DNA of 64,000 nucleotides from an uncultured delta proteobacterium (GTDB lineage Bacteria; Myxococcota_A; Polyangia; Polyangiales; Polyangiaceae): assembly GCA_963841435.1 (NCBI GenBank), contig CAWJCS010000002.1, positions 480,001 to 544,000 of the forward strand. The letters are read 5' to 3'. The notes below the pieces were generated by a model. It did no database searches, had not been told where the DNA came from, and saw nothing but the letters and a program-made list of their open reading frames with translations. The translations under genes and the position numbers were made by a program. Shown here one piece after another: positions 4,578 to 18,929 of the stretch (the first letter of the stretch is position 1; every line of letters begins with the position of its first letter).

Positions 4578-4890
4578 GCAGTTGGCGAGCGAAATGAGCA
4601 CCTCTGTCGGGTTCGGCGCCAGCATTTGCAGCCAGCGCCTCATTTTGAATTATCCGCCTGTGCCCCCGAGGATCACGTTGGGAGAACAGGCTCGCGATGC
4701 TGGGGTTCGGCGAGTGAGGAGAGGTCCGTCAGCGCGCCGAACAAAGTGTTCGTGAAACCGAAAAATTTGCGGGATCCATAACAACAAGGCACGCCTTCCG
4801 ACAATTCTGAACCGGTTGCCAACCGTCACGAGCGTGGACGACGTTGGAGCACGGTGTGCGCGGGCACGCCCATCCTCGGAGAGCGTGTGG

Positions 4891-6732
4891 ATGATGAAGC
4901 TGTCCTGGCACGAGTACGGTGGCTCGAGAGACCTCCTGGCCTGCTGCGCCCTGGCTTTGGCGTGCGGGTGCACGGCCACGGTGGACGGAGGGACCACCCC
5001 GGGCTCCGGCGCCGCACCCGCCGCCAGCGGGGGCTCGACAGGCGCGGCGCCGGGGGCTGGAGGCTCGTCGGCCGGGACCGCGCCGCAGAGCGGCGGGACC
5101 GGCGCGACCGTGGGCTCCGGCGGGACCGGTGCCGCGGCGACCGGGGGATCGGCTGGAACCGGCGCGGGCGCCGCGGGCGGCACCCCACCCGTGTTCGAGG
5201 ATCCGCCTCCGTTCGAGCCCGCCCCGGGCATGCTTCGCCGTTTGACGAGAGCGCAGTTCAAGAACGCCATCCGCGACGTGTTTGGCGTCGAGGTCAATGT
5301 AGACGAGCTCGACCCGGACAGCTTCGACGGCAGTATGCCCGTCGTCGGGGCGTCCACGGTCGTCACCGCCGAGCGCGGAGTCGAGCAGTACCATACGGCC
5401 ATCGAAAGCGCCGTGGACGCCGTGTTCTCCGACGCCGCGAAGCGCGCTGCGTTCATCGGCTGCACGCCGACGGGCAACGCCAATGACGCGTGCGTGCGCG
5501 GCTTCGTCGAGAGCATGGGGCGCCGCGCGTGGCGACGCCCGCTCGACGCGACGGAGATCGCTCGCTTCGTGACGGTCGCCGAGACGGCGGCGACGGAGCT
5601 CGGCAGCCCGGAGGAAGGCGTGCGCTGGGCGACGGTGGCGCTGTTCAGCTCGCCGAATTTCCTCTACCGCCCCGAGCTCGGTGCACCGACGACAGGCGGC
5701 GCGCTCCGCTTCACGGACTTCGAGCTGGCGTCCCGGCTGGCGTTTCTCGTGTGGAACAGCATCGCCGACGACGCGCTGCTCGACGCCGCCGAGAGCGGAC
5801 AGCTTGCCACGGTGGAAGGAATTCGGGCCGCGGCGGAGCGTCTGCTCGCGACGCCCGCGGGGCGCGAGTCAGTGGGCAACTTCGCCGTCGAGTACTTGCG
5901 GCTCGATCGCGTCCTCAGCCAGGCGAAGGACCCGTCGCTCTTCCCCGAGTACTCCCCGGCGCTCCAGGCCGGCATGGTAGCGGACGTGCGCGGCACCTGG
6001 GAGGCGATCGCCCTCGACGACCGGGTCAGCGCGATGGAGCTGTTCTCGACGCCCAAGGTCGTCGTCAACTCCGACCTCGCAAAGGTCTATGGCATCGACG
6101 CCACGGGGCTCACCTCGACCACGTTCGAGCTGCGCTCGCTGCCGGCCGACGGCCCGCGCCTCGGACTGCTCAGCAAGGCGGGATTCCTTTCGGAGTTCGC
6201 GAACCAGAAGGCCGGCTCACCGACGCTCCGCGGCAAGTTCATGCAGGAGGAGCTGCTCTGCACGCCGATCGAGCCCCCGCCCGGCAACGTCAACCTCGCG
6301 ATCGACGATCTGCCGACCGATCAGCCGATGACGAAGCGCCAGAAGCTCGAGATGCACCGGTCCAATCCGACGTGCTCGGGCTGCCATTCGATGATGGATC
6401 CGCTGGGCCTGCCGCTCGAAACCTTCGACGCAATCGGGCGCTACCGCACGACGGAGCAGGGCCTGACGATCGACCCGAGCGGCGACTTCGACGAGCAACC
6501 CGTCGTGGACGCGGCCGACCTCGGGCGTGTCGTCGGAGCCGACCCGCGGGTCGCGCAGTGCCTCGTGCGGAAGTACTTCGCGTACGCCATGGGCCGCAGG
6601 GCGCGCAACGTCAACGGAAGCGTCATCAACGAGCTTGCCGCGTCCTTCGAGGCGTCGGGGTTCAAGCTCCGTGACCTCGTTCTCAACGTCGCGACGAGCG
6701 AAGCCTTCGCCTCCGTCGCACCAGAACTCTAG
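4891..6732 (+). CDS. DUF1587/1595/1592/1588/1585 domain lipoprotein with Gly-rich linker
   Basis: LACGC lipobox, LRRLTRAQF, GRRAWRRPL, SSPNFLYR, SPTLRG, CSGCH, ETFDAIGRYR. Confidence 0.9.
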   Translation: MMKLSWHEYGGSRDLLACCALALACGCTATVDGGTTPGSGAAPAASGGSTGAAPGAGGSSAGTAPQSGGTGATVGSGGTGAAATGGSAGTGAGAAGGTPPVFEDPPPFEPAPGMLRRLTRAQFKNAIRDVFGVEVNVDELDPDSFDGSMPVVGASTVVTAERGVEQYHTAIESAVDAVFSDAAKRAAFIGCTPTGNANDACVRGFVESMGRRAWRRPLDATEIARFVTVAETAATELGSPEEGVRWATVALFSSPNFLYRPELGAPTTGGALRFTDFELASRLAFLVWNSIADDALLDAAESGQLATVEGIRAAAERLLATPAGRESVGNFAVEYLRLDRVLSQAKDPSLFPEYSPALQAGMVADVRGTWEAIALDDRVSAMELFSTPKVVVNSDLAKVYGIDATGLTSTTFELRSLPADGPRLGLLSKAGFLSEFANQKAGSPTLRGKFMQEELLCTPIEPPPGNVNLAIDDLPTDQPMTKRQKLEMHRSNPTCSGCHSMMDPLGLPLETFDAIGRYRTTEQGLTIDPSGDFDEQPVVDAADLGRVVGADPRVAQCLVRKYFAYAMGRRARNVNGSVINELAASFEASGFKLRDLVLNVATSEAFASVAPEL

Positions 6733-6748
6733 GTCGCAAGAGAACGCC

Positions 6749-8128
6749 ATGACGATGAAACCCCTGAAGCGACGCAACGTTCTTCGAGGCATGCTGGCGA
6801 CGGGCGCGGCCGTTGCCATCCCGCTGCCGCTGCTCGAGTGCATGCTGAACGAAAACGGCAACGCGCTCGCCCAGTCGAACACCGCCCTCTCCCCGCTCTT
6901 CGTGCTGTGGTTCTTCGGCAATGGGTCGCTGCCCGGCCTCTGGAAACCGTCCGCCACGGGCTCCGGCACGGCATGGCAGCTGAGCTCGCAGCTCCAGCCG
7001 CTCGCAGACCACAAGTCGTACATGACGGTGATCTCAGGGCTCGAGGGCAAGCTCGTCACAGCCGCCGCCCCACATCCGAGCGGTTCGGCCGCCGCGACGA
7101 CGGGCGCGCCCCTGAACGGCAACGCCGTGCGCGCAGCCTCGCTCGACCAGATCGTCGCCGACCAGATTGCCGCGGGCGCGCCGTATCGCTCGATCGAGGT
7201 GGGGGTGACCCCGGCGACGCCGAACGGACCCGAGGACTCGCTCCAAACGGTTTCGCACGGGGGACCCAACGCGCGAAAAATGGCCGAATACGACCCGAAG
7301 GCGATTTTCACACGCCTGTTCGGCAGCACGCAGGCGCCTCCAACCACTGGCGAGGAGGACCCGGCGGTCAAGCTCGCGCGCGTGCGCACGAGCGTGCTCG
7401 ACGCGATCCTCGAGGACGGCAATGCGCTCGAGCAGCGCCTCGGTGCCACCGATAAGCAACGTGTGGAAGCCCATCTCGAAGCGATCCGAGCCATCGAAAT
7501 GCGCCTGGATACCATGCCGGCGACGGGCGGGACGCTACCGGCCGCCTGCGGCAGCGTGACCGCACCCACCGTCGGCAAGGACACCAAGAGTGAGGCGCCG
7601 CCCGAGGTCAACACCGCGATGGCAGAGCTCACGAACCTGGCGCTCGCCTGCGAGAAGACGCGCGTGGCCACGTTCATGTTCTCGCTTCCCGCGGCGCACG
7701 TTTACTACCGGCACCTCGCCTCCGACATGAATGACGATTTTCACGACACCATCTGCCACGGGGACGCCGGCACCGAGTCGGACCAGCCCCGCGTGGACAA
7801 GGGCGTGCTCTACGCCATGAAGTGCCTCGACGAGTTCCTGACCAACATGAAGAACCTGCCGCACGGCGCGGGGAACCTGCTCGACGCATCGCTCGTCTAC
7901 GTCACGTCCGACATTGCGTGGGGCAAGGTGCACACCAAGGAGGAATGGCCGGTGCTCATGGTCGGCAAGGCCGGCGGGCGCCTGCGCGGCGACGAGCACC
8001 ACAATTTCCAGAGCGAAAACCTCACCCGAGCGCTGCTCACGGCCGCCCAGATCATGGGCGCTCCGCAGACCGAGCTCGGCATCGACGGCGGCAAGGTCAC
8101 CGCCGCGCTGCCGGGCATCATCGTCTAG
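6749..8128 (+). CDS. DUF1552 Tat-exported protein
   Basis: KRRNVLRG..IPLPLLE, SLDQIVAD, DKQRVEAHLEAIRAIE, FHDTICH; directly follows the DUF1592 gene. Confidence 0.9.
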   Translation: MTMKPLKRRNVLRGMLATGAAVAIPLPLLECMLNENGNALAQSNTALSPLFVLWFFGNGSLPGLWKPSATGSGTAWQLSSQLQPLADHKSYMTVISGLEGKLVTAAAPHPSGSAAATTGAPLNGNAVRAASLDQIVADQIAAGAPYRSIEVGVTPATPNGPEDSLQTVSHGGPNARKMAEYDPKAIFTRLFGSTQAPPTTGEEDPAVKLARVRTSVLDAILEDGNALEQRLGATDKQRVEAHLEAIRAIEMRLDTMPATGGTLPAACGSVTAPTVGKDTKSEAPPEVNTAMAELTNLALACEKTRVATFMFSLPAAHVYYRHLASDMNDDFHDTICHGDAGTESDQPRVDKGVLYAMKCLDEFLTNMKNLPHGAGNLLDASLVYVTSDIAWGKVHTKEEWPVLMVGKAGGRLRGDEHHNFQSENLTRALLTAAQIMGAPQTELGIDGGKVTAALPGIIV

Positions 8129-8221
8129 CCTCCCGGCAGGGACTGGTTCCCGGCTGAACCGACGAGCCCCCCTGCGACCGGTTCCACTCATCGCAGAATC
8201 TTCGAGAAAACGGGGGTCTGA

Positions 8222-8249
8222 GTAACCTCTGGCGCGGGCGGTGCCACTA
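8222..8249 (+). promoter_or_regulatory. Putative ECF sigma promoter GTAACC-N17-CACTA
   Basis: Same bipartite motif and spacing recur at 12653-12680 before the second ECF gene; ATG lies 8 nt after the -10 element. Confidence 0.65.
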
Positions 8250-8257
8250 CAAGGTCC

Positions 8258-8893
8258 ATGGCCCTTTCGCCGGAGCGTTCGAACGTGCCCTTGAGGCTCG
8301 TCCGCCCGGCGGCCGAGGCCGAGCTCGTGGCGGACTGCGTGGCCCGGGAGCCGGCCGCTCTCCGGAGCCTATTCGAGCGCGAGCGGTCGCGGGTGCACGC
8401 GCTGCTCTACCGCGTGGTGGGGTCGAACGCACCCATGGACGACCTGCTCCAGGACACGTTCCTGGAGGTGTTTCGCTCGCTTCCTGGCTTTCGTGGTGAT
8501 TCCGCGCTCAGCACTTGGATCGACCGGTGCGCCGTGCGCGTGGCGTACGCGCACTTCGCGCGCAAGAAACGCCTGCCGTCGCTGCAGCCCGTGGAGGACG
8601 TCGAAGCAGGGAGCCCCAGCGTGGACGAGCACGCTTCGATGCGCGAGGCGGCCCGGCGCCTTTACGCCGCACTCGACCGCATCGAGCCGCGGCAACGCAT
8701 CGCATTCACGCTGTTCGTGATCGAAGGCCGCTCCCAGCTCGAGGTGGCAAGCGTGATGGGATCCTCTCTCGCGACGGTGAAGATCAGGGTGTGGCGGGCG
8801 CGGCGAGCCCTGGAACGGTTCGCGAGGCAGGACGCGCTGCTTTCGGATTTTTTGAGCGACGACGCTCGGGACGACAAGGACGAAAAGAAATGA
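8258..8893 (+). CDS. ECF RNA polymerase sigma-70 factor
   Basis: Region 2 DDLLQDTFLEVFRSLPGFRGDSALSTW; region 4 EVASVMGSSLATVKIRVWRAR. Confidence 0.93.
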   Translation: MALSPERSNVPLRLVRPAAEAELVADCVAREPAALRSLFERERSRVHALLYRVVGSNAPMDDLLQDTFLEVFRSLPGFRGDSALSTWIDRCAVRVAYAHFARKKRLPSLQPVEDVEAGSPSVDEHASMREAARRLYAALDRIEPRQRIAFTLFVIEGRSQLEVASVMGSSLATVKIRVWRARRALERFARQDALLSDFLSDDARDDKDEKK

Positions 8894-9942
8894 AGAAGCT
8901 CGCACGCATCGAAGTCGAGCCGCTCGGCGAGCAGCGCTGGTCGAAGCTCGAGCGCTCGCTGTTCTTGCGCCTCGAGCGCGAAGCGGATGTCGCTCTTCCG
9001 GCCCCCATTCGGCCGCAACGAGCGCGCCGGAGCGCCTGGCTCGTGGCGGCGGCTCTCGCGGGTGCGGTCGCCGTGCTTTCGTTCGTGACGCTTCGCTCAC
9101 CGTCGCAAGCCGTGCTGGAGCAGCCGTCGCACATCACCACGGGGCCGAGCCCGTCTCACCTCGCGCTGCCGGGCCTGTCGCTCGACGTCGAGCCCGAGTC
9201 TGCCGTCGTCATCGGCACCGAAACGACGGATGGCCTTCTGATCGTGGTCGATCGGGGCGGCATCGCGTGCAAGGTGGCGCCGCGCGCGAGTGACGCGCCG
9301 CTCATCGTGCAGGCCGGGGCCGTCAGGGTGCGCGTGGTCGGGACGCGCTTCCGCGTGACGCGCTCGGGCGGCGGAGCGCGCGTGAAGGTGGACGAAGGCG
9401 TGGTCGAGGTGAGCGCGCTCGGGCAAACGTCGCGCGTGCGGGCGGGCGAGCAATGGTCGATGCCGGAGACGACGCGGGCCGACCCGACGCCGCCGGCCGT
9501 GGCGCCGGGCGCGGCTCCCACGGAGCCGTCGAGCGTCGCCGGTGAAGGGGAGCCCGCTCCGACGGACGCGGCGCCCGGCGAGACGCCTGCGCTGGTCTCG
9601 AGGCCTCACGCCGCGCCCGAGCGCGGTACGCGTGAGGCGCACCCGGCAGACGCGGTGCGCGAGGAGCCCCCCTCGGCCGACACGCAGCCGTCGGCGCAGG
9701 CCATCTTCGAGCAAGCCGCCGCCCTCGAGCGCGGCGACCCGGGGCGCGCAGCACGGCTCTATGGCACGCTGGAGTCCGGCACCGATTCGTGGGCCCAAAA
9801 CGCGCTCTACGCGCACGGACGGCTGGAAGCCTCGCTCGGCAACCGTGCCGGCGCGCGCCGCTTGCTGGAGCGCTACCTCGCGCGCTTCCCCCGCGGCAGC
9901 AACGCGGAGGATGCGCGAGCGGTGCTCGAGCGGCTCAGGTAG
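8890..9942 (+). CDS. FecR-like transmembrane anti-sigma factor with C-terminal TPR-like helices
   Basis: ATGA overlap with sigma; one TM helix; VRVVGTRFRV..V.EGVVEV FecR motif; Pro-rich linker; YLARFPRGS TPR-type end. Confidence 0.85.
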   Translation: MKKLARIEVEPLGEQRWSKLERSLFLRLEREADVALPAPIRPQRARRSAWLVAAALAGAVAVLSFVTLRSPSQAVLEQPSHITTGPSPSHLALPGLSLDVEPESAVVIGTETTDGLLIVVDRGGIACKVAPRASDAPLIVQAGAVRVRVVGTRFRVTRSGGGARVKVDEGVVEVSALGQTSRVRAGEQWSMPETTRADPTPPAVAPGAAPTEPSSVAGEGEPAPTDAAPGETPALVSRPHAAPERGTREAHPADAVREEPPSADTQPSAQAIFEQAAALERGDPGRAARLYGTLESGTDSWAQNALYAHGRLEASLGNRAGARRLLERYLARFPRGSNAEDARAVLERLR

Positions 9943-9954
9943 TCTCGCGGGCGC

Positions 9955-10947
9955 GTGCGGAAGTGGGCTCTGCGGCTGCTCCTGGCTCTTGCTGCGCTGT
10001 CGGTCGCAACGAGCGCGCGGGCCACTCCGCGCCGCATCGCGGTACTCCAGCCTGACGGCGAGCTCATCCGCGCGCTGGTTCTGGCGCTCTCGCCCTGGGG
10101 CGTTACGCCCATCCGGAGCGAGGCACCGCCCCCTCAGGGCTCGGCGCCGGAAGCCCTCCGTACGGCTTCGGACGTGGCGCACGAGCTCTTGGTCGAAGCA
10201 GTCGTCTGGGTCTCGACCTCGGAGCAAGGTGCTTTGCTCTGGGTTTTCGATGCGCACACGGGCGAGATCACCACGCGGCTTCTCACCCAGAAGCCGCCGT
10301 TCGACAGCGCCACCGCGGCCGCCGTGGCGCTCAGCGTGAAGACGGTGCTGCGCTCCAGCCAGATCGCCCCGCCCGAAGAACGCCTGGCCGTGCCGCCGCC
10401 GCCGCCGCCGCCGCCGGAGCCGAGGGTCGATCCCACGCTCGCGCTCCAGCTCGGCGGTGGCGTGCAGCTGGTGCGTCCGGGTCGGCTCGCGCTCCGGGGG
10501 GAGCTCGCCGCGCTCGTGTGGATTGCGGCGGCGCGACGCCTCGGCGTCGGGGTGTACGGGGCGACGGGGCCGGAGCTGCGCCTCGAGGAGCCGAGCTTTC
10601 GCGGCCGCTACCGCGAGGACGAGCTCGGCGGCACGGTGCGCCTGCGGGTTCTGCGTACGCCACGGACTTCGATGACGCTGGCACTCGGCGGCGCCGCACA
10701 TTTCAGCACGCTGCGCGGCACACTCCTTCGCGACGCGTGGCCGCGCACCGTGCGTCGCCTCAACGGGTCGCTCGATGCGGAAGCGTCGGCGAGCTTCGAA
10801 GTGGTCGGTGGCGTCTACCTGGGTGCAGCGCTCGGGGGCGCCTATTTCCCGAGATACCGGCGCTACCTCGTCGAGGGCACACCGATTTTCTCGCCCTGGC
10901 CCGTGGCGACCAGCTTGAAAGGCATCCTGGGTGTCGCGCTCTTCTGA
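9955..10947 (+). CDS. Putative outer-membrane protein (periplasmic domain, poly-Pro hinge, beta-barrel-like C-terminus)
   Basis: Signal peptide, PPPPPPPP linker, amphipathic beta-strand pattern, terminal Phe. Confidence 0.65.
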   Translation: MRKWALRLLLALAALSVATSARATPRRIAVLQPDGELIRALVLALSPWGVTPIRSEAPPPQGSAPEALRTASDVAHELLVEAVVWVSTSEQGALLWVFDAHTGEITTRLLTQKPPFDSATAAAVALSVKTVLRSSQIAPPEERLAVPPPPPPPPEPRVDPTLALQLGGGVQLVRPGRLALRGELAALVWIAAARRLGVGVYGATGPELRLEEPSFRGRYREDELGGTVRLRVLRTPRTSMTLALGGAAHFSTLRGTLLRDAWPRTVRRLNGSLDAEASASFEVVGGVYLGAALGGAYFPRYRRYLVEGTPIFSPWPVATSLKGILGVALF

Positions 10948-12649
10948 GAACGCTCGGCGCTCGAGGCGACGGCTGCTCGCGAGCGCGGCTTTGCCGCTGC
11001 TCGGGGTATGCCTGGTCGCGTGCGGTCGCGAGGATATCGAGCTCGCGCGCCCGACGAGCCTTGCGCCCGCCGTGAGCGATTGCAGCGCGGCCGTCCCGGA
11101 AGGGCTCATCGCTGCGCGTCCCCCCATGGGCTGGAACGGCTGGAACGCGTTCGGCTGCTCCCCGACGCTGGACGAGGCGCTCCTCAAGGCCAACGTCAAC
11201 GCGCTCGTGGACAGTGGGATGCAGAGCGCCGGCTACCAGTACGTCAACCTGGACGCCTGTTGGGAAACCGAGCGCGGCGCCGACGGCCAGCGCCAGATCG
11301 ACGCCACGCGTCTGCCGGGCGGAATCGAAGCGTTCGCGGAGTACGTCCACACCCGGGGGCTCTCGCTCGGTATCTACGCGCCGATCGAGACCTGCTCCGC
11401 CGGGCAGGGCATCGAGGGACATGAAGCCGACGACGCGGCCACCTACGCCGCCTGGGGGGTCGACTACGTGAAGCTCTCGCGCTGCGACGGCGGCGCCCAG
11501 GTGAGCGAGGATGCCGGAACGGGCCTCGCCACGGCGATCGACGAAACGGGGCGACCGATGCTGCTGAGCCTGGCGAGCCCCCCTTTCCAGGAGTGGATGC
11601 CGGAGCGGGCGCAGGCCTTTCGGTGCGCGGGCAACATCGAGCCGACCTGGAGCTCGCTGCTGCGCTCGATCGACTCGACCCTGCCGCTGGCGGCGTACGC
11701 GCGCCCCGGGGCCTTCAACGATCCGGACATGCTCGAGATCGGCAACGGAGCGCTCACTCCGGGCGAGCAGCGCGTCCAGCTCGCGGTGTGGTCGATCCTC
11801 TCGGCGCCGCTCCTCGCCGGCAACGACCTCTCGGTGATGACGGAGGAAACGCGCGCCCTGCTCACCAACACCCGCGTCATCGCGCTAAACCAGGATCCGC
11901 TGGGCCTGCAGGCGGCGCTCGTCCGTAGCGAAGGCGACGTCGAGCTGCTCGCCAAGCCGCTCTCCGGCTGCGGCGCCCGCGCGGCCGTGCTCTACAACCG
12001 CGGCGACACGAGCGCCGACATCGCCGTCGCGTGGAACGACCTCTGGCTCGAAGCGGCCGGCGGCGCCGTCCAAAACCTCTGGACCGACTCGCCGGTCGCC
12101 TCGGACACGTCTGGCTTCCGCGTGACGGTGCTGCCGCACGACGCTGTCGCTCTGCGCGTGACGGGCGTCGAGCCCCCGCTGCCGGGCGGTCGTAGCTACC
12201 TCAGTGACCTCCGCCCGAGCTACGCGACGAACGGCTTCGGCCCGTTTGAGCTCGATCAGACCAACGGTGAGGACAGCGCCCTGGATGGCGCACCGATCCG
12301 CCTCAGGGGCGCGGCGTACGACAAGGGCCTCGGGGTTCACGCCCCTTCGCTCCTCCGCTACCGCCTCGGGCGAGCGTGCACGAGGTTCGAAGCCGACGTG
12401 GGGATCGACGACGATCAGCAGGGGCAGGGCTCGGTCGAATTCGAGGTGTGGGCCGACGGCGAGCGCCTGTTCCGCAGCGGTGTGCTCACCGGCTCGAGCC
12501 CGGTGCGCACCGTGAACCTCGACCTGACCGGCCGTCGGGACCTCCGGCTCTTCGTCGGGACCGGGGGCGACACGAACGGCAAGGACCACGGCGTCTGGGC
12601 CGGAGCACGCCTCGACTGCGACCCCGCCGGCACGCCGGCTGGGCCCTGA
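10931..12649 (+). CDS. GH27 (alpha-galactosidase-like) + NPCBM/CBM51 lipoprotein, probably catalytically inactive
   Basis: LVAC lipobox; PPMGWNGWN, FNDPDMLEIGNG, APLLAGND, VIALNQDPLG; NPCBM YDKGLGVHAPS, VGIDD; both catalytic Asp positions substituted. Confidence 0.9.
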   Translation: MSRSSENARRSRRRLLASAALPLLGVCLVACGREDIELARPTSLAPAVSDCSAAVPEGLIAARPPMGWNGWNAFGCSPTLDEALLKANVNALVDSGMQSAGYQYVNLDACWETERGADGQRQIDATRLPGGIEAFAEYVHTRGLSLGIYAPIETCSAGQGIEGHEADDAATYAAWGVDYVKLSRCDGGAQVSEDAGTGLATAIDETGRPMLLSLASPPFQEWMPERAQAFRCAGNIEPTWSSLLRSIDSTLPLAAYARPGAFNDPDMLEIGNGALTPGEQRVQLAVWSILSAPLLAGNDLSVMTEETRALLTNTRVIALNQDPLGLQAALVRSEGDVELLAKPLSGCGARAAVLYNRGDTSADIAVAWNDLWLEAAGGAVQNLWTDSPVASDTSGFRVTVLPHDAVALRVTGVEPPLPGGRSYLSDLRPSYATNGFGPFELDQTNGEDSALDGAPIRLRGAAYDKGLGVHAPSLLRYRLGRACTRFEADVGIDDDQQGQGSVEFEVWADGERLFRSGVLTGSSPVRTVNLDLTGRRDLRLFVGTGGDTNGKDHGVWAGARLDCDPAGTPAGP

Positions 12650-12652
12650 CCC

Positions 12653-12680
12653 GTAACCTTTCACCGCCCCCATTCCACTA
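12653..12680 (+). promoter_or_regulatory. Putative ECF sigma promoter GTAACC-N17-CACTA
   Basis: Identical hexamer, pentamer and 17-nt spacer to 8222-8249; ATG at 12688. Confidence 0.65.
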
Positions 12681-12687
12681 GGTGGGA

Positions 12688-13227
12688 ATGCCGCTCCACG
12701 CGCTTCCGAGCTTGCCGCCGGAGCGGAACATTCCGGATCCAGGAGCGGCCCCCGTGCCCTACGAAGAGCTGGCCACCTACGTGCGAAAGCTGGCGCGGCG
12801 GAGCCTCGGCGCGGGCGCGGACGCGGACGACGTCGTCCAGCAGGTGCTCTTCAGCGTCCTCCGCCACGGCTCCGAGCTTCGCGACCGGGGAGCGCTGCGC
12901 GGGTGGGTGCGCGCCATCACCTTCAGTGTCGTCGCCGATGTCATCCGGCGGCGCCGGACGTGGCGGGTGGTCGAGCTCGATGCCGCCCGACAGCGAAGCG
13001 GCGACCTCGTACGCACCGTCGAGATGCGCGAGCTCCTCGCACGCCTGCAGTCGATGATCGAGCGCCTCCCACCCGCCGAGCAGTCGGCCTTCGTGATGCG
13101 CTACGTCGAAGGTCGCAAGGTCAACGAAGTCGCCCGCAGCGAGGGCTACTCGCGCGCGACCGCGCGGCGGCGCCTGGTCAGGGCGGAGCGGATCCTGAAG
13201 ACGCTGGCGACGCAGATGGCGTCATAG
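12688..13227 (+). CDS. ECF sigma-70 factor (no adjacent anti-sigma)
   Basis: DADDVVQQVL..LRGWV region 2; IERLPPAEQSAFVMRYVEG..EVA region 4. Confidence 0.85.
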   Translation: MPLHALPSLPPERNIPDPGAAPVPYEELATYVRKLARRSLGAGADADDVVQQVLFSVLRHGSELRDRGALRGWVRAITFSVVADVIRRRRTWRVVELDAARQRSGDLVRTVEMRELLARLQSMIERLPPAEQSAFVMRYVEGRKVNEVARSEGYSRATARRRLVRAERILKTLATQMAS

Positions 13228-13282
13228 CGTTGGGAGAGCTTCACGTTTCAGCCCGAAACTCGGGTCAGAAGGACACGCGCGG

Positions 13283-13834
13283 TCAGCCGCGGCAGACGCT
13301 GGGTGCCGCGCACGTGCGCTGCCCGCTCGGCAACGCGGCGCAGCAGCCCCGGCGGCAATCGCCGTCAACGTCGCAGCGCTCCGCGCAGTAGGCGATGCCC
13401 CCTGACACGTCGCGCGGGTCCGAGATGCAAACCCAACCGCTCGAGCAGTCGCTGTCCGAGTCGCAAGGGCCCTCGGGGGTGCGGCAGTAGCGGTCTCCGG
13501 CGGTCCCCGTCACACACGATGCAGCGCCGCAGTCCGAGTCCGTCTCGCAGGCAAACTTGGCAGACGGGCAGTAGAGCGTGCCGCGGTGATCGACGGCGCA
13601 CACGCCGCTCTCGGGGCAACCCTCGGACGATGCGCACATCCCGACGACGCACGTCGGGTGGCCGCTCTGGTCGAGGTCAACGCAGATGGCGTCCGTCGGC
13701 ATGGGATCGCTGCAATCCGCATCCGACTTGCACGGCGGAACCTCGCCGCCGAGCACCGAATCGCCGTCGACGCTGCACCCTGCCGCCAGCCACGCGACCA
13801 CGCCCGCAAGCACCGTGCCGAGTCCTCTGCCCAT
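13283..13834 (-). CDS. Cys-rich repeat lipoprotein
   Basis: LAAGC lipobox; repeated CxxDxDC modules. Confidence 0.75.
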   Translation of the reverse strand: MGRGLGTVLAGVVAWLAAGCSVDGDSVLGGEVPPCKSDADCSDPMPTDAICVDLDQSGHPTCVVGMCASSEGCPESGVCAVDHRGTLYCPSAKFACETDSDCGAASCVTGTAGDRYCRTPEGPCDSDSDCSSGWVCISDPRDVSGGIAYCAERCDVDGDCRRGCCAALPSGQRTCAAPSVCRG

Positions 13835-13997: not shown

Positions 13998-15119
13998 TCA
14001 CGCGGTGCGCTTCTTGTAGCTCCACATCGCGAGGGCGTTGAACACCACGGCGAAGCCGCCCAGCTTGAGCAGCACGGGCGCGAGGTCCCTGAGGGTGCTG
14101 CCCTTGATGTAGACCGCGCGCACGACCGTGATGAGATACGACGGCGGGTTGAAGGCGGCGATATCCTGCGCCCAGCCCGGCATGCTCTCGATCGGCGTGT
14201 ACAGGCCACTCAGCAAGATGAAGATCATCATGATGAAGAACGAGAGCAGCGTGGCCTGCTGCTGGCTCTCGGTGATGGTGCTGATGAACAGCCCGATGCC
14301 CAAAACACCCACCAAGTAGAGAGCCGAGAAGACGTAGAGCGTGAAGAGCGAGCCAAGTGGCCAGAGCCCGAACACGACGAGCGCGACCACGATGCCGATC
14401 GAGATGGACACCATGCCGAGCACCCAGAAGGGGATGAGCTTGCCCAAAATGAACTCGACCTTGCGGATCGGCGTCACGTTGATCTGCTCGATGGTTCCGG
14501 CTTCTTTCTCTTGGACGATGTTGAGCGAGGACAGGAACGCCCCCACCATCGTCACCAGAATCGGCAGCAGGCCAGGAACCATGAACGCCGCGTAGTTGAC
14601 GTGAGGGTTGTACCAGCTGGCGGTCGTGACCTCGATCGTCGGCGCCTGAGGACTCGGCGAGGCAGGCATGGACTCGGCTCCGAGCTCGCCCTGAAACTGC
14701 CGGACCATCGACAGCGCGTAGCTGGTCCCCAGGCCCGCACGCACGCCATTGACCGCGTCGGCAACCAGCTGCAGCGAGGCGTGCCCGGTCGTCGTCAGAT
14801 CGCGCTCGAAATCGTGCGGAATGGTCAGCACGATGTCGGCGCGGCCGTCCTCCATGAGCTGGGTCCCCGTGCGGTAGTCGGGTGGGGCCGCCACGATGCG
14901 GAAGTAGTTGGAGGCCCCGACCTTCTGGATCAGCCGCTGGGAGTCGCTCGAGTGATCCTGGTCCACGATAGCGATCGAGATGTGCTTGACCTCGTAGTCC
15001 GCGGCCAGCGGAATGAGCACGAGCTGCACCACCGGCATGATGAAGATCAGCCGCAAGATGGCTCTGTCACGGAAGATGAGCAAAAACTCCTTCTGCAAGA
15101 GGAAGTAGAGATTGCGCAT
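13998..15119 (-). CDS. ABC-2 type permease (YbhR-like)
   Basis: KEFLLIFRD, WYNP, EKEAGTIEQINVTP, LSGLYTPIESMP. Confidence 0.92.
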   Translation of the reverse strand: MRNLYFLLQKEFLLIFRDRAILRLIFIMPVVQLVLIPLAADYEVKHISIAIVDQDHSSDSQRLIQKVGASNYFRIVAAPPDYRTGTQLMEDGRADIVLTIPHDFERDLTTTGHASLQLVADAVNGVRAGLGTSYALSMVRQFQGELGAESMPASPSPQAPTIEVTTASWYNPHVNYAAFMVPGLLPILVTMVGAFLSSLNIVQEKEAGTIEQINVTPIRKVEFILGKLIPFWVLGMVSISIGIVVALVVFGLWPLGSLFTLYVFSALYLVGVLGIGLFISTITESQQQATLLSFFIMMIFILLSGLYTPIESMPGWAQDIAAFNPPSYLITVVRAVYIKGSTLRDLAPVLLKLGGFAVVFNALAMWSYKKRTA

Positions 15120-15122
15120 GCG

Positions 15123-16271
15123 CTAAAGCCTCTGCTTGAAGGTCCGCCAGGCGATGGCCATCAGCGCCAGCGTCATGCCGGCGAGGACCAGCGTCGGCTC
15201 GATGATGGCCGAAAAACCGAGGTGCTTGATCATCACGCTGCTCGCGATCAGATAGAACCACCTCGTGGGGATGACGTGGCTGATCACCCGCAAGGCGAGG
15301 GGCATGTTCTCGATGGGGAACATGAACCCGCTGAACACCAATGCCGGCATCAATAGGCCCACCAGCGAGACGAACATGGCCGTCTGCTGCTGCTCGACCA
15401 CGTTCGATATCACGAGGCCGAGCGAGAGCGTCGTCACGATGAACAGCAGGCTCTCCGCGACGAGCAGCGGGATATTGGCGCCACGCGGCATGTCCATCAG
15501 GCCATAGGACAAGAGCAGGATGATCAGCACGTCGATCAGGCAGAGCACCAGGTAGGGCACGGCCTTGCCGATGATCAGGCTGAGCGGATGCATGGGTGAG
15601 ACGAGCAGCACCTCCATGGTGCCGCGCTCCTTCTCGCGCACGATCGAGACGGACGTCATCATGGCGCCCAGCAGCATCACGATCAGCGTCATGACGCCCG
15701 GGACGAACATGTAGCTGCTCTTGAGCTGGGGGTTGTAAAGCATGCGAGTTTCGACGTTGATGGCTCCTGCCCGGACCGGAGCCTTCGTCAGGTCCGCCTG
15801 GTACTGACCGACGATGGCCGCCGCGTAGTTGGTGACGGTGCTGGCGGTGTTCGGATCGGAGGCGTCCGCGACCAGACGGATTTGGGCGTGACCGAGGTGC
15901 CTGAGGTCATGGTCGAATTCTGGGAGGAACACCACGGCAAGGCGTGCGTCGCCGCGCCGGAAGCGCTCGCCGACCTCGGCCTCGCTCTTTACATGGCCCG
16001 AGAAGGTGAAATATTTGCTCTCGGCGATGCGGTCGATGAGCCCAATCGTCAACGCGTCGGGCACGCGGTCCAGGACGACGAAGTTGCTGTTCTTGACCTC
16101 GTTCGACAGAGCAAAGCCGAAGAGCGTCATCATGACGACCGGCAGGCCCAGGAGAATGAGCAGGCTCCTCCGGTCGCGCACGACGTGCTTGGCTTCCTTG
16201 AGCACGAAAGCGACGAACATCCGGATCGCGCTGACCCGGTGCTCCGGGCCCTCGGTCGCTTCAGTCGCCAT
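15123..16271 (-). CDS. ABC-2 type permease (YbhS-like)
   Basis: KEAKHVVRDRR, YNPQLKSS..VPG, REKERGTME, SGFMFPIENMP. Confidence 0.92.
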   Translation of the reverse strand: MATEATEGPEHRVSAIRMFVAFVLKEAKHVVRDRRSLLILLGLPVVMMTLFGFALSNEVKNSNFVVLDRVPDALTIGLIDRIAESKYFTFSGHVKSEAEVGERFRRGDARLAVVFLPEFDHDLRHLGHAQIRLVADASDPNTASTVTNYAAAIVGQYQADLTKAPVRAGAINVETRMLYNPQLKSSYMFVPGVMTLIVMLLGAMMTSVSIVREKERGTMEVLLVSPMHPLSLIIGKAVPYLVLCLIDVLIILLLSYGLMDMPRGANIPLLVAESLLFIVTTLSLGLVISNVVEQQQTAMFVSLVGLLMPALVFSGFMFPIENMPLALRVISHVIPTRWFYLIASSVMIKHLGFSAIIEPTLVLAGMTLALMAIAWRTFKQRL

Positions 16272-17004
16272 GGCGCTTCGCCTTTCGTGCCAGCGCGACG
16301 AACACCTCTTCGACCGAGGCCACCCCGTACTCCGCGCACAGCTCGGCGGGCTTTCCCATCGCGGCGATCGCTCCGTCAACCATGATCGACACGCGATCGC
16401 AGTACTCGGCCTCGTCCATGTAGTGAGTCGTCACGAACACGGTTACCCCGCGCGACGACGCCTCGAAGATCATGTCCCAAAACTGTCGCCGCACGATGGG
16501 ATCGACGCCGCCCGTGGGCTCGTCCAAAAAGACCACCTTCGGCTGGTGCACCGTGGCGACCGCGAAGCTGATGCGCTGCTTCCAGCCGAGCGGCAGATCG
16601 TCCACCCGCGTATCGGCGGCCGAGGTCAGCCGCAGCCGCTCGAGGATCTCACTCGTCTTGTCTTTGACCTCCTGGAGCGGCAGCCCGTAGATGCCGGCAA
16701 AGAAGCGGATGTTCTGGCGCACGCTGAGCCTGCCGTAGAGCGAGAACTTCTGGCTCATGTAGCCAATCCGCTTCTTGATCTGCTCGGACTGGGTCATGGC
16801 GTCGAAGCCCGCGACCGTCGCGCGTCCCGAGGTCGGCTCGAGCAGCCCGCAGAAGATCCGCATCGCCGTGGTCTTGCCCGCGCCGTTGGCGCCGAGAAAA
16901 CCGAAGATCTCGCCCGCGGCCACCTGGAGATTGATGGCGTCGACCGCCGTGAACGAGCCGAAGCGGCGCGTCAGGTTCTCGGCCTCGATGACCCACTCAG
17001 TCAT
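16261..17004 (-). CDS. ABC transporter ATP-binding protein
   Basis: Walker A GANGAGKTT, LPLGWKQR, FLDEPTGGVDP. Confidence 0.95.
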   Translation of the reverse strand: MTEWVIEAENLTRRFGSFTAVDAINLQVAAGEIFGFLGANGAGKTTAMRIFCGLLEPTSGRATVAGFDAMTQSEQIKKRIGYMSQKFSLYGRLSVRQNIRFFAGIYGLPLQEVKDKTSEILERLRLTSAADTRVDDLPLGWKQRISFAVATVHQPKVVFLDEPTGGVDPIVRRQFWDMIFEASSRGVTVFVTTHYMDEAEYCDRVSIMVDGAIAAMGKPAELCAEYGVASVEEVFVALARKAKRHGD

Positions 17005-17923
17005 GGGCCTCTCCGTGGATGAGATCGATGAAGACATCTTCCACGTTCGGCTCGATCGCGCGCACCGACGCCGCCTGGTGCCCGAGCCCACGCAGGTAGG
17101 CGAGCACGGCTTCGGGACCTCCGGCGTCGGCCTGGAGCACCAGGTGGTGCTCTCGTCCGAACGCGAAGCAGTAGCGGGTCCCGGGGTAGGCCCGGAGATC
17201 CTTGAGAATCGGAAAGAGTCGATCGCCGCTCACGGCGTAGGTCTCGGTGGCATGGCGCTCGAGCAGCGCGGCCAGCGTGTCGAGCGCGATGATCTTGCCC
17301 TTCTGTACGAGCGCGATCCGGTCGCAGCGCGCCGCCTCGTCCATGTACGGTGTCGAGACGACGATGGTGATGCCGCCTTCGCGCAAGCGTCCGAGCATGC
17401 TCCAGAAGTCCTTGCGCGAGACGGGATCGACGCCGGTGGTCGGCTCGTCCAAAAACAGCACCTTGGGCGCATGAATGAGCGCGCAGCAGAGGGCCAGCTT
17501 CTGCTTCATGCCGCCCGACAGCTTGCCCGCCAGGCGCGTCTTGAACGGCTCGAGCTGCGTGTAGATGTCGGAGACGAGGTGGTAATTGGCCTCGACCGTC
17601 GTGCCGAACACCGTGGCAAAGAACGCCAAATTCTCGGCCACGGACAGATCCTGATAGAGCGAGAAGCGCCCCGGCATGTAGCCGACCAGCGCGCGGATGG
17701 CGCGGAAGTCCTGCACCACGTCGTGCCCGAGCACGCTGGCCCGGCCGCGATCGGCCAAAAGGAGCGTGGTCAGGATGCGGATTAGCGTGGTCTTGCCCGC
17801 ACCGTCCGGGCCGATGAGGCCGAAGATCTCGCCCGGCGCGACCTCGAACGACAGGTCGTCCAACGCCGGCGCGTCGGCGCGCGGGTAGCGCTTGCAGAGA
17901 CGATCGACGACCACGGCCGGCAT
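16997..17923 (-). CDS. ABC transporter ATP-binding protein
   Basis: GPDGAGKTT, LSGGMKQK, FLDEPTTGVDP. Confidence 0.95.
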   Translation of the reverse strand: MPAVVVDRLCKRYPRADAPALDDLSFEVAPGEIFGLIGPDGAGKTTLIRILTTLLLADRGRASVLGHDVVQDFRAIRALVGYMPGRFSLYQDLSVAENLAFFATVFGTTVEANYHLVSDIYTQLEPFKTRLAGKLSGGMKQKLALCCALIHAPKVLFLDEPTTGVDPVSRKDFWSMLGRLREGGITIVVSTPYMDEAARCDRIALVQKGKIIALDTLAALLERHATETYAVSGDRLFPILKDLRAYPGTRYCFAFGREHHLVLQADAGGPEAVLAYLRGLGHQAASVRAIEPNVEDVFIDLIHGEAHD

Positions 17924-17939
17924 CAGTGCACCGCCCTCG

Positions 17940-18929
17940 TCACCGGAACGAGACCTCGGCGTACATGCCGAGCTTGAGCGTCCCGTCGTTCTGGACGCGG
18001 ATCTTGATGGCGTACACGAGGTTGGAGCGCTCGCTCTTGGTTTGAATCGTCTTGGGCGTGAACTCCGCCTTGTCGGACACCCAGGTGAGCGTGCCCGGTA
18101 GTTCGCGGTACGCCTTTTCGCCCGCGTCGATGAACACGCGCACCTTCTGGTTGAGCTTCACCTGGGCGAGCTGATCGCCGGTGATGTACGCGCGGAGCTC
18201 GATGTGGCTGAGATCCGCGATGCGGTAGAGCGGCTTACCGGGGGTAGCGAATTCGTACTGCTCCGCGTACTTGGTGAGCACGGTGCCGGCGATGGGATTG
18301 ATCACCTTGCATTTCTTGATCTGGTCATCGATCGCGGCGATGCGTGCTTGAGTGGGCGAGCGTTCGCTCTCGGTGGCTCGGTTCTGCAGAGCCACCTGAT
18401 CCTTGTACGACGCGGCTCGTTGATGGGTGATCGCAATCTGGCTCTTGGTCGAGGCCATCTGTCGCTTGAGGACGGCGATCTGGCCTTCGATGTCCGTCAG
18501 CTGCTTGGCGGGCGCGGCCTTCGCCTCCACGAGCGTGGTGAAGCGCCGGCGCTCGCGCTCGAGCACGTCGAGCTGCTCGGCCTGCACGGCCAGCTGCGAC
18601 TCGGTCGTCTTGGCCTCTTCCCGCAAGATCTGGAGCTGAGGCTTGGCCTCGGTCGTGCGGTCGCCGATGGCGAGCTCGGACGCCCGAACCTGGTTTCGCT
18701 GCAAGACGAGCTGCTGGCAATCGATCTCGGCCGCGAGGGCATCGGCCGCCAGCGTTTGGCCCTCCAGGATGGGCATGGCGATGATTTGCCCGGCGACTTC
18801 GGCCGCGATGATGGTGTCGCGAGCCTCGAAGACGCCGCTGGCGTCGTGCTCGTCCTTCCGGGTGGAGCAGCCCGCGGCGAGGACGAGCAGTGCGGCAAGA
18901 AGCGTGCGTGGGAGTTGTCCGTGGTTCAT
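17940..18929 (-). CDS. HlyD-family periplasmic adaptor (YbhG-like) lipoprotein
   Basis: LAAGC, SGVFEA, coiled coil, AEFTPKTIQT..R..LVYAIK. Confidence 0.92.
   Translation of the reverse strand: MNHGQLPRTLLAALLVLAAGCSTRKDEHDASGVFEARDTIIAAEVAGQIIAMPILEGQTLAADALAAEIDCQQLVLQRNQVRASELAIGDRTTEAKPQLQILREEAKTTESQLAVQAEQLDVLERERRRFTTLVEAKAAPAKQLTDIEGQIAVLKRQMASTKSQIAITHQRAASYKDQVALQNRATESERSPTQARIAAIDDQIKKCKVINPIAGTVLTKYAEQYEFATPGKPLYRIADLSHIELRAYITGDQLAQVKLNQKVRVFIDAGEKAYRELPGTLTWVSDKAEFTPKTIQTKSERSNLVYAIKIRVQNDGTLKLGMYAEVSFR

Follow-up and report, generated by a model that had tools for sequence, protein, structure and literature searches.

What does a glycoside hydrolase do in an operon that otherwise encodes a sigma factor, an anti-sigma factor and an outer membrane (OM) protein? 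The question is raised by positions 8222-13227 of a stretch of 64,000 nucleotides (the window) from an uncultured delta proteobacterium of the Polyangiaceae (GenBank assembly GCA_963841435.1, contig CAWJCS010000002.1, positions 480,001 to 544,000). In DNA of about 71% G+C, five tightly packed genes on the + strand encode an extracytoplasmic function (ECF) sigma factor (ECF1), an anti-sigma factor, an OM protein, a lipoprotein with a glycoside hydrolase family 27 (GH27) domain and an NPCBM domain, and a second ECF sigma factor (ECF2). A first-pass annotation, made from the letters alone, had described four packed genes followed by a second ECF gene and had suspected a glycan-sensing system; gene calls and Pfam agree with it on the gene content. 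We find that the GH27 domain lacks its catalytic residues, that the loss of the nucleophile is common to a whole clade, and that the GH27 protein appears to be one of several lipoproteins that share a tether motif beside a conserved core of sigma, anti-sigma and OM protein genes. Relatives with names are uncultured Polyangiaceae and Polyangiales metagenome-assembled genomes (MAGs).

The frame of the GH27 lipoprotein is open over 572 codons without a frameshift, as had been stated before, and its three domains all score strongly in Pfam (Melibiase_2 PF16499, E 4.7e-51; Melibiase_C PF17801, E 1.6e-9; NPCBM PF08305, E 6.2e-47). The first two make up the GH27 fold, a (beta/alpha)8 domain followed by a C-terminal beta-sandwich, and phmmer aligned the protein with the solved enzymes 6f4c (E 4.6e-73) and 1uas (E 1.1e-71). 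The third has the fold and sequence of a CBM51/NPCBM module, with matches to 2vmg and 2vmh at E about 7e-20 and many invariant columns among 39 homologues.

In GH27, a family of alpha-galactosidases and alpha-N-acetylgalactosaminidases, the Asp of the K-[YF]-D motif is the catalytic nucleophile. In the phmmer alignment the sequence DYVKLSRC lies under DYLKYDNC, with Ser183 at the nucleophile position, FRCAGNI lies under WRTTGDI, with Asn235 at the position of the acid/base Asp of W-R-x-x-x-D-I, and NLDACW lies under NIDDCW, with the second Asp of the DD pair replaced. The CEW motif of the plant enzyme reads ASP. The first-pass annotation had picked out the same three substitutions and called the protein catalytically dead; alignment to solved GH27 enzymes upholds the placement of all three. 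With nucleophile, acid/base and second DD Asp lost, the domain is predicted to be unable to act as a retaining alpha-galactosidase.

Paralogues of the GH27 gene whose motifs are intact occur in the same genome. One of them, on contig C5, is itself a GH27-NPCBM lipoprotein with the same three-domain architecture, a lipoprotein signal and 44% identity to the copy in the window; it keeps NIDDCW, DYVKYDNC and WRTTTDI and does not lie near ECF genes. Intact GH27-CBM51/NPCBM enzymes of this kind share all three domains with the window's copy and differ from it by their nucleophile, acid/base residue and second DD Asp. A literature search, with supplementary files outside its reach, found no paper that combines GH27 with the term pseudoenzyme and no active GH27 that lacks the nucleophile.

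The substitutions extend far beyond the window. Among the best 120 of 7,613 homologue cluster matches (from 8,000 scored candidates, the window's own protein counted), the nucleophile position is never Asp; it is Val in 98 clusters, Ala in 10, Thr in 7, Arg in 4 and Ser in 1. The acid/base position holds Asp in 57 of these clusters, Asn in 35 and another residue in 28, and the second Asp of the DD pair is kept in just 28. D92, K168, R227, C142, C172, D264 and D266, in the numbering of the human enzyme, are invariant in all of them. No member is as derived as the window's copy, which alone has Ser at the nucleophile position (1/120) and shows the rare Leu169 (2/120) and Phe226 (1/120).

In a maximum-likelihood tree of 45 GH27 domains, obtained by a quick search and with six rows left unlabelled because their motif could not be read by regular expression, all 22 nucleophile-less rows fell on one side of a branch with an SH-aLRT support of 98. 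The ratio of nonsynonymous to synonymous substitution rates (dN/dS; NG86 method, eight orthologues) was 0.11-0.32 in 28 of 28 pairs, values that are rough because dS, at 0.8-2.9, is near saturation. The branch of the window's copy is slightly faster (omega 0.20-0.32 in comparisons with the others, against 0.11-0.29 among the others). Tally, tree and substitution rates support an ancient, clade-wide loss of the nucleophile that had a single origin and has been under purifying selection. The check proposed in the first-pass annotation, whether GH27 homologues in the same context share the catalytic substitutions under purifying selection, thus comes out in its favour, with the nucleophile lost in all of the best 120 clusters and low dN/dS.

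The nucleophile-less gene is also set apart by its neighbours. We searched 41 genomes (G000, 24 of the same genus and 16 from other families of the order), of which 15 contained a GH27 match at E<=1e-60, and examined flanks of only about 1.5 kb around the loci in the relatives. Matches to the ECF, FecR or OM proteins were present in the flanks of all eight nucleophile-less GH27 loci and of none of the 23 other GH27 loci, which supports a specific link of the nucleophile-less gene to genes for an ECF sigma factor, a FecR-type anti-sigma factor and the OM protein. Three of the relatives' loci keep the order of the window (ECF1, anti-sigma factor, OM protein, GH27). At the five loci of a more distant clade (44-50% identity), the GH27 and ECF sigma genes run in divergent directions. 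One of the latter, L040, has the ECF sigma gene followed by genes for a FecR/TPR protein and for a 340-aa protein with the layout of the OM protein; this type of OM protein is only weakly similar to that of the window (BLASTP E 1e-4 in the N-domain).

A separate observation concerns L023, L024 and L032 (genomes G018 and G004), which form a long-branch GH27-NPCBM clade of their own at about 43% identity, with no recognisable K-x-D motif. Two members read FRNRGGITDTW in the acid/base region, and two of the three matches contain an in-frame TAG. Judged by these sequences, they may represent a second, independent degenerate GH27 lineage without an ECF neighbour.

Seen from the OM protein, the picture of the module changes. 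Its family comprises 111 clusters at 90% identity, all annotated as hypothetical and without a Pfam domain; at 50% identity, 913 representatives pass E<=0.001 and 284 pass E<=1e-30. When one genome per species was scanned with the OM protein alignment, 13 loci were obtained, Polyangiales and Haliangium MAGs among them, and each of the 13 has an ECF1-type and a FecR-type gene next to that of the OM protein. The conserved core of the module is therefore the triad of sigma factor, anti-sigma factor and OM protein. The gene that follows the OM protein gene is visible in ten of these loci, the other three ending before it: a GH27 lipoprotein in six, a Cys-rich lipoprotein in two, an RCC1 lipoprotein in one and no lipoprotein in one.

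The proteins encoded at this variable position resemble each other at their N-termini. In the window's protein, the lipobox reads ...LLGVCLVA-C31, and Cys31 is conserved in at least 90% of 39 aligned homologues; a lipobox precedes the GH27 domain in 13 of 13 loci compared. We therefore regard the protein as a bacterial lipoprotein, its lipidation being predicted from the signal sequence. The lipobox is followed by C-G-R-E-D-I-E-L, which is kept in the GH27 orthologues (C31, E34, D35 and L38 each in at least 90% of the 39 sequences), then by a linker rich in Pro and Ala, some 10 to 90 residues long, and the GH27 domain. The Cys-rich lipoproteins start with ...C-TEDVEL (L052) and ...C-GEDVDF (L053), and the RCC1-repeat lipoprotein of a Haliangium MAG (L054) with ...C-DETVQL, while the distant divergent clade has another motif, CGDRHLTAI. 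In the window's genome, the strict tether motif in a hydrophobic lipobox context occurs once, in the GH27 lipoprotein gene.

A scan of metagenomes added 25 mostly short loci. GH27-type lipoproteins with GRED[IV]EL were found at six of them and lipoproteins with GPEDIEL or GEDVDF at five, four of these visibly Cys-rich and the fifth (L075) leaving its contig before the head. L077 has one further lipoprotein with the motif, and L074 a Cys-rich frame without its N-terminus. A simple script found no credible lipoprotein at L069, L071 and L076, and the remaining loci are short of downstream sequence. Taken together, the alignments indicate that the GH27-NPCBM protein is one of several interchangeable lipoprotein heads, and that the shared part is C-G-x-E-D-[IV]-[ED]-[LF] and not the glycan module. 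Of the module that the first-pass annotation had drawn, the linkage of ECF, FecR and OM protein genes is borne out; the GH27-NPCBM lipoprotein is not a fixed part of the core.

Two points on the N-terminus of the window's lipoprotein may be added. Translation from GTG 10931 gives a normal lipoprotein signal, as in the orthologues; the database protein P0112 (552 aa) starts 20 residues later, at TTG 10991, which cuts off most of the signal peptide. The sequence RRSRRRLL looked Tat-like, and export by the Tat system was rejected on the grounds that the twin arginine is not kept in the N-termini of orthologues.

ECF1 consists of the sigma2 and sigma4 regions only, its stop codon overlaps the start of the anti-sigma gene (ATGA), and a conserved ECF-type promoter lies upstream, all of which is typical of ECF sigma factors. 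Its orthologues in syntenic loci are 58-69% identical. ECF2 shares 30% identity with ECF1 and has no adjoining anti-sigma gene. As for classification, FecR-like anti-sigma factors carrying TPRs are described for group ECF267 in PMC7826278, and by this analogy ECF267 is a lead for the group to which ECF1 might belong.

The anti-sigma factor begins, in the AlphaFold2 (AF2) model, with a cytoplasmic helix (residues 14-34), a transmembrane helix (about 45-68) and a FecR/PupR-like beta domain (77-194), which are followed by a disordered linker of 68 residues (196-263) and a five-helix, TPR-like tip (269-349). The overall pLDDT is 77, and each of the two folded domains exceeds 90. The beta domain superimposes on the PupR CCSSD with Z 17.6 (root-mean-square deviation (rmsd) 1.9 over 117 residues) and on BDI_1681 with Z 16.5. 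The tip resembles periplasmic TPR proteins with Z about 12, a range that is generic for helical repeats, and Pfam matches to TPR families stayed below their cut-offs. By its single transmembrane helix and its periplasmic FecR/PupR beta domain, seen both in Pfam and in the model, the protein is of the FecR type. PupR has a receptor-binding subdomain behind the beta domain. Where Fec/Pup-type proteins have such a transducer-binding C-terminal subdomain, the window's protein has the disordered linker and the TPR-like domain instead. No TonB-dependent receptor (Plug domain) is encoded on the window's contig. Because the genome's 12 Plug-domain genes and its single STN domain are all on other contigs, the earlier description of the system as free of a TonB receptor holds for this locus.

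The OM protein is modelled by AF2 (pLDDT 89) with a signal peptide (1-23), an alpha/beta domain (26-133), a Pro-rich linker and an 8-strand-type barrel (162-328); its C-terminus reads ...GVALF. The barrel matches the N-terminal domain of OprF best (Z 17.4, rmsd 1.8, 133 residues), then NspA (Z 17.2), and also OmpA and OmpW (Z in the range of 16-17; Foldseek against OmpA, E 2.6e-8). With eight strands, a signal peptide and a C-terminal aromatic residue, the model has the features of an OmpA/OmpX-type barrel. The N-domain (model residues 23-135) resembles the N-terminal domain of TolB with Z 8.5, in the middling range (rmsd 3.7, 106 residues). A complex prediction for anti-sigma factor 69-350, OM protein 24-330 and GH27 lipoprotein 31-415 returned neither support nor counter-evidence for an interaction.

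The promoters connect the genes further. Of 14 other loci inspected, 12 have the sequence GTAAC[CT]-N17-CACTA, or a near variant ending in CACAG, upstream of their ECF1 orthologue; the two exceptions are L052 and L054. The first base of the conserved -35 element in the window is position 8222, with which the first-pass annotation had begun the locus. In the window the pattern has three matches against 0.02 expected. With a spacer of 16-18 nt, only the promoters before ECF1 and ECF2 (P1 and P2, Table 1) match in the whole 7.78-Mb genome, each before a sigma gene, and a genome scan with a weight matrix gave two matches above 18 bits; this estimate of regulon size rests on the strict pattern and on a matrix built with both window sites. 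The third match in the window (GTAACC, 15 nt, CACTA; 16421-16446, - strand), with a spacer shorter than at the conserved sites, lies inside an ABC-transporter cluster (13998-18929, - strand) of ABC-2 permeases, ATPases and an HlyD-like gene.

At 12 sites (P1, P2, those of the eight closest ECF1 orthologues and the second copies in L046 and L051), the start codon follows the -10 element after 7-11 nt, and at 10 of the 12 after 7-9 nt. Because of this short distance, the transcripts of the module are probably leaderless. For the same reason we favour ATG 12688, seven nt after the CACTA of P2, over GTG 12682 as the start of ECF2.

Second copies of the promoter in other genomes precede ECF2-like genes (L045, L047), a pair of DUF1592 and DUF1552 genes (L046, L051 and, divergently, L048) and a Cys-rich lipoprotein gene (L053); a divergent second copy is also present in L056. 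The DUF1592/DUF1552 pair adjoins the module in L046, L048 and L051, and from its promoters it is a probable member of the regulon in other genomes. For the pair in the window, a pattern scan detected no ECF-type promoter upstream of 4891. In the divergent clade (L039-L042), the interval of about 70 nt between the GH27 and ECF genes contains the shared palindromic -35-like sequence TTGGTCCAA with -10-like elements on both sides, and the palindrome could serve two divergent ECF-type promoters as a common -35 element. With such promoters in the operon as well as in the divergent arrangement, the lipoprotein gene is very probably transcribed by its cognate ECF sigma factor in both.

From these observations we arrive, tentatively and stopping short of calling it probable, at an autoregulated envelope signalling module of uncultured Polyangiaceae that is free of a TonB receptor and has the lipoprotein on its input side. 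The single-pass anti-sigma factor would hold ECF1 at the inner membrane, and its beta domain, 68-residue linker and TPR tip would together be long enough to reach the OM. There the OM lipoprotein would dock through C-G-R-E-D-I-E-L and the flexible Pro/Ala linker and present an interchangeable head. The GH27-NPCBM head would have lost its nucleophile in the ancestor of a large clade and then been kept as a non-catalytic, lectin-like protein, binding a ligand, probably a galactose-type glycan, chiefly through the NPCBM module. Ligand binding would alter the contact between lipoprotein, OM protein and TPR tip, and ECF1 would be released. From a pair of identical leaderless promoters, it would then transcribe ECF2 as well as the operon to which it belongs itself.

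Three considerations favour a role on the input side. Variable ligand-binding heads behind one conserved docking motif are what a receptor family looks like; the tether and protein-binding tip of the anti-sigma factor are suited to reach a partner in the OM; and almost no other output is visible in this genome. A bolder version of the proposal, which we hold to be unlikely as it stands, is that Polyangia possess an undescribed, TonB-independent form of surface signalling in which interchangeable lipoprotein receptors dock through their common N-terminal tether on the OM protein, whose periplasmic domain contacts the TPR tip. The heads would then be the nucleophile-less GH27-NPCBM pseudoenzyme, knottin-like Cys-rich repeats and the RCC1 propeller, and the pseudo-GH27 would act as a glycan receptor, a transition from enzyme to sensor that has been fixed throughout its clade.

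Several points weigh against placing the lipoprotein on the input side or against a galactoside as its ligand. While gene content, folds, catalytic loss, purifying selection, synteny, motif and promoters are all read from the data, the protein contacts, the ligand and the input-side role of the lipoprotein are steps that we infer. In the window's copy, an outlier in its own clade, the canonical galactose pocket is short of four polar residues, and across the best 120 clusters the residues at positions 93 and 231 differ widely. The case for alpha-galactoside binding at the old active site is thereby weakened; such binding is doubtful for the window's copy, and if a glycan is contacted at all, the NPCBM module is more likely to do so. 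A complete locus, L047, has the triad without an adjoining lipoprotein, an ECF2-like gene standing directly after the OM protein gene. No fusion of anti-sigma factor with OM protein or of OM protein with lipoprotein was found, which is weak evidence, and neither was a longer homologue of the OM protein (the best 150 of the 913 representatives have 139-441 aa). The lipoprotein is certainly a candidate output of the system as well, because its gene lies inside the ECF1-driven operon and has an ECF-like promoter of its own in the divergent clade. In the closest organisational analogue, Dma1/Das1 of Bacteroides, the adjoining lipoprotein NigD2 is a member of the regulon (PMC10927553).

These last points lead to an alternative that we rate as unlikely, albeit one to be taken seriously. 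The anti-sigma factor, alone or together with the OM protein, would respond to some other cue from the envelope or from outside, and OM protein and lipoprotein would be switched on by ECF1, the lipoprotein being a surface- or OM-anchored lectin or adhesin for glycans of prey or plants and its acidic N-terminal motif serving either in sorting or export to the surface or as an attachment to the OM protein. The acidic motif after the Cys is similar in composition to the lipoprotein export signal of Bacteroidota. The lipoprotein gene is co-transcribed behind an autoregulated promoter, the divergent clade has the lipoprotein promoter whose palindromic -35 is shared with the sigma gene, the same promoter type elsewhere drives more secreted proteins or lipoproteins, namely DUF1592/DUF1552 pairs and Cys-rich lipoproteins, L047 does without the lipoprotein, and NigD lipoproteins are outputs of Dma1/Das1 in Bacteroides (PMC10927553). 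All of this would fit, but a receptor may also be a target of its own system, and membership in the operon does not, for this reason, decide between input and output. In the Fec system, the receptor gene fecA is such a target. A docking motif common to unrelated heads is equally compatible with a shared partner and with a sorting signal. Moreover, with just two strict promoter matches in the genome, ECF1 would be left with almost no output beyond its own module and ECF2.

A second alternative, quite improbable in our view, makes the former specificity of the head irrelevant. As in RcsF and OmpA, the tether would be threaded onto or docked on the small barrel, and the system would report defects in OM or lipoprotein assembly instead of a glycan. 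The conservation of tether motif and very variable-length linker in front of unrelated heads agrees with such an envelope monitor, as does the OmpA/OprF-type 8-strand barrel, and an ECF operon with an OM porin is known in SigX-CfrX-CmpX-OprF (ECF102; PMC7826278). The heads, though, are large and strongly conserved, with many invariant columns in the NPCBM module and low dN/dS over the whole protein, which would be unexpected of heads without a function.

Retained enzyme activity of the protein, by a different mechanism or on a different substrate (for instance with an exogenous or substrate-borne nucleophile, or as a transglycosylase or phosphorylase), appears highly improbable: part of the pocket (D92, K168, R227, D264, D266 and the C142-C172 pair) is invariant in 120/120 clusters and the acid/base Asp is kept in 57/120, but the nucleophile position is mostly Val (98/120), the acid/base is lost in 63/120, the window's copy included, the aligned motif offers no evident carboxylate as a substitute, and the literature search gave no active GH27 without nucleophile. 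Decay of a functionless alpha-galactosidase copy, which would have undone the first-pass annotation, is refuted as far as sequences can tell, in spite of the several catalytic and pocket residues lost here and the slightly faster branch. The nucleophile is absent from 119 further clusters as well, an old loss that extends through the clade; dN/dS well below 1 speaks for purifying selection; the frame is open over 572 codons and all three domains score strongly; and synteny, lipobox and motif are conserved.

How does the module compare with known systems? It shares with Fec and Pup (FecI/FecR/FecA, PupI/PupR/PupB) an ECF gene beside that of a single-pass anti-sigma factor with a FecR/PupR beta fold, an OM partner gene in the operon and, probably, autoregulation. 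Unlike these, the window's locus has no TonB-dependent transducer; it has a linker and TPR tip behind the beta domain, and the OM partner protein, which combines a TolB-N-like domain with an 8-strand barrel, is accompanied by a lipoprotein. The Dma1/Das1 system of Bacteroidota is similar in its ECF sigma factor, its long disordered periplasmic anti-sigma region, its 8-strand OM barrel, an adjoining lipoprotein of unknown function and the lack of a TonB-dependent receptor (PMC10927553). In that system, anti-sigma factor and barrel form one polypeptide for which a FecR domain is not described, whereas the window has two genes, for FecR plus TPR and for TolB-N-like domain plus barrel; the family is stated to be restricted to Bacteroidota, and its lipoproteins are unrelated to that of the window. 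A Dma protein unites anti-sigma domain, transmembrane helix, disordered region and 8-strand barrel in a single chain; in the module, the anti-sigma factor and the barrel are encoded by separate genes.

In the RsgI/SigI systems of Clostridium thermocellum, carbohydrate-binding or GH-like modules with anti-sigma factors likewise report extracellular polysaccharide; as described in PMC6852018 and PMC10328401, they differ in that the host is Gram-positive, the sensor is fused to the anti-sigma factor, the sigma factor is SigI and not an ECF, and there is neither an OM protein nor a lipoprotein. SigX-CfrX-CmpX-OprF of Pseudomonas (ECF102) is an ECF operon with an OmpA/OprF-type OM protein that is thought to be regulatory, but has another type of anti-sigma factor and a mechanosensitive channel in place of the lipoprotein (PMC7826278). 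The N-terminal barrel of OprF is, as mentioned, the best structural match of the window's barrel (Z 17.4). The periplasmic domain of OprF is C-terminal and binds peptidoglycan. In sum, the module would work like cell-surface signalling, yet belongs neither to the Fec/Pup type nor to the Dma family, and a literature search (supplementary files again outside it) found no description of it.

Table 1. Positions of the promoters, genes and key residues of the module and of a neighbouring gene pair in the window.
Feature	Position	Strand	Evidence and remarks
ECF-type promoter P1	8222-8249	+	GTAACC, 17 nt, CACTA; ATG 8 nt downstream
ECF1, ECF sigma factor, 211 aa	8258-8893	+	Pfam Sigma70_r2 E 2.7e-14, Sigma70_r4_2 E 4.4e-12
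Anti-sigma factor, 350 aa	8890-9942	+	Pfam FecR E 1.3e-7
OM protein, 330 aa	9955-10947	+	no Pfam match; AF2 fold
Nucleophile-less GH27 + beta-sandwich + NPCBM/CBM51 lipoprotein, 572 aa	10931-12649	+	Pfam, PDB alignments
Predicted lipidated Cys31 and motif G-R-E-D-I-E-L	11021-11044	+	homologue conservation; Cys31 codon 11021-11023
Ala109, in place of second Asp of GH27 DD pair	11255-11257	+	phmmer alignment
Ser183, in place of GH27 nucleophile Asp	11477-11479	+	phmmer alignment, clade tally
Asn235, in place of GH27 acid/base Asp	11633-11635	+	phmmer alignment
NPCBM/CBM51 module, residues 421-561	12191-12613	+	Pfam, CBM51 structures
Second ECF-type promoter P2	12653-12680	+	pattern scan; directly upstream of ECF2
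ECF2, ECF sigma factor	12682-13227	+	Pfam r2, r4_2; 181 aa from GTG, 179 aa from ATG 12688
DUF1592-family + DUF1552 gene pair	4816-8128	+	Pfam

The genes of the module are closely spaced throughout (Table 1), the GH27 gene overlapping that of the OM protein by 17 nt. A scan of 8000-13500 for sigma-70 promoters and terminators gave no promoter-like site and terminator-like sites at chance level. Among public sequencing runs, no RNA run matched; one soil DNA run did, with a 0.05 share of words. Convergent with ECF2 lies the gene of a Cys-rich lipoprotein (13283-13807, - strand) with the signal ...AWLAAGC, no Pfam match and no tether motif; Cys-rich lipoproteins are alternative heads of the module in other genomes. 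Upstream of the module, the DUF1592-family protein has PSD/PSCyt domains, the haem-type (CxxCH) motif CSGCH and a lipoprotein-like signal, and its DUF1552 partner belongs to the HXXSHH family and has a Tat-like signal.

If the proposed mechanism is true, it would constitute a third route from the cell surface of Gram-negative bacteria to an ECF sigma factor, beside TonB-dependent transducers and fused Dma proteins, and a clean natural case of a glycoside hydrolase that was turned into a non-catalytic binder and long kept as such. The analysis also defines three uncharacterised families, namely that of the OM protein, the nucleophile-less GH27-NPCBM clade and the lipoprotein tether motif. The GH27-NPCBM clade is currently annotated by pipelines as alpha-galactosidase, and the alpha-galactosidase capacity of soil myxobacterial genomes is overstated in counts of carbohydrate enzymes that include it.

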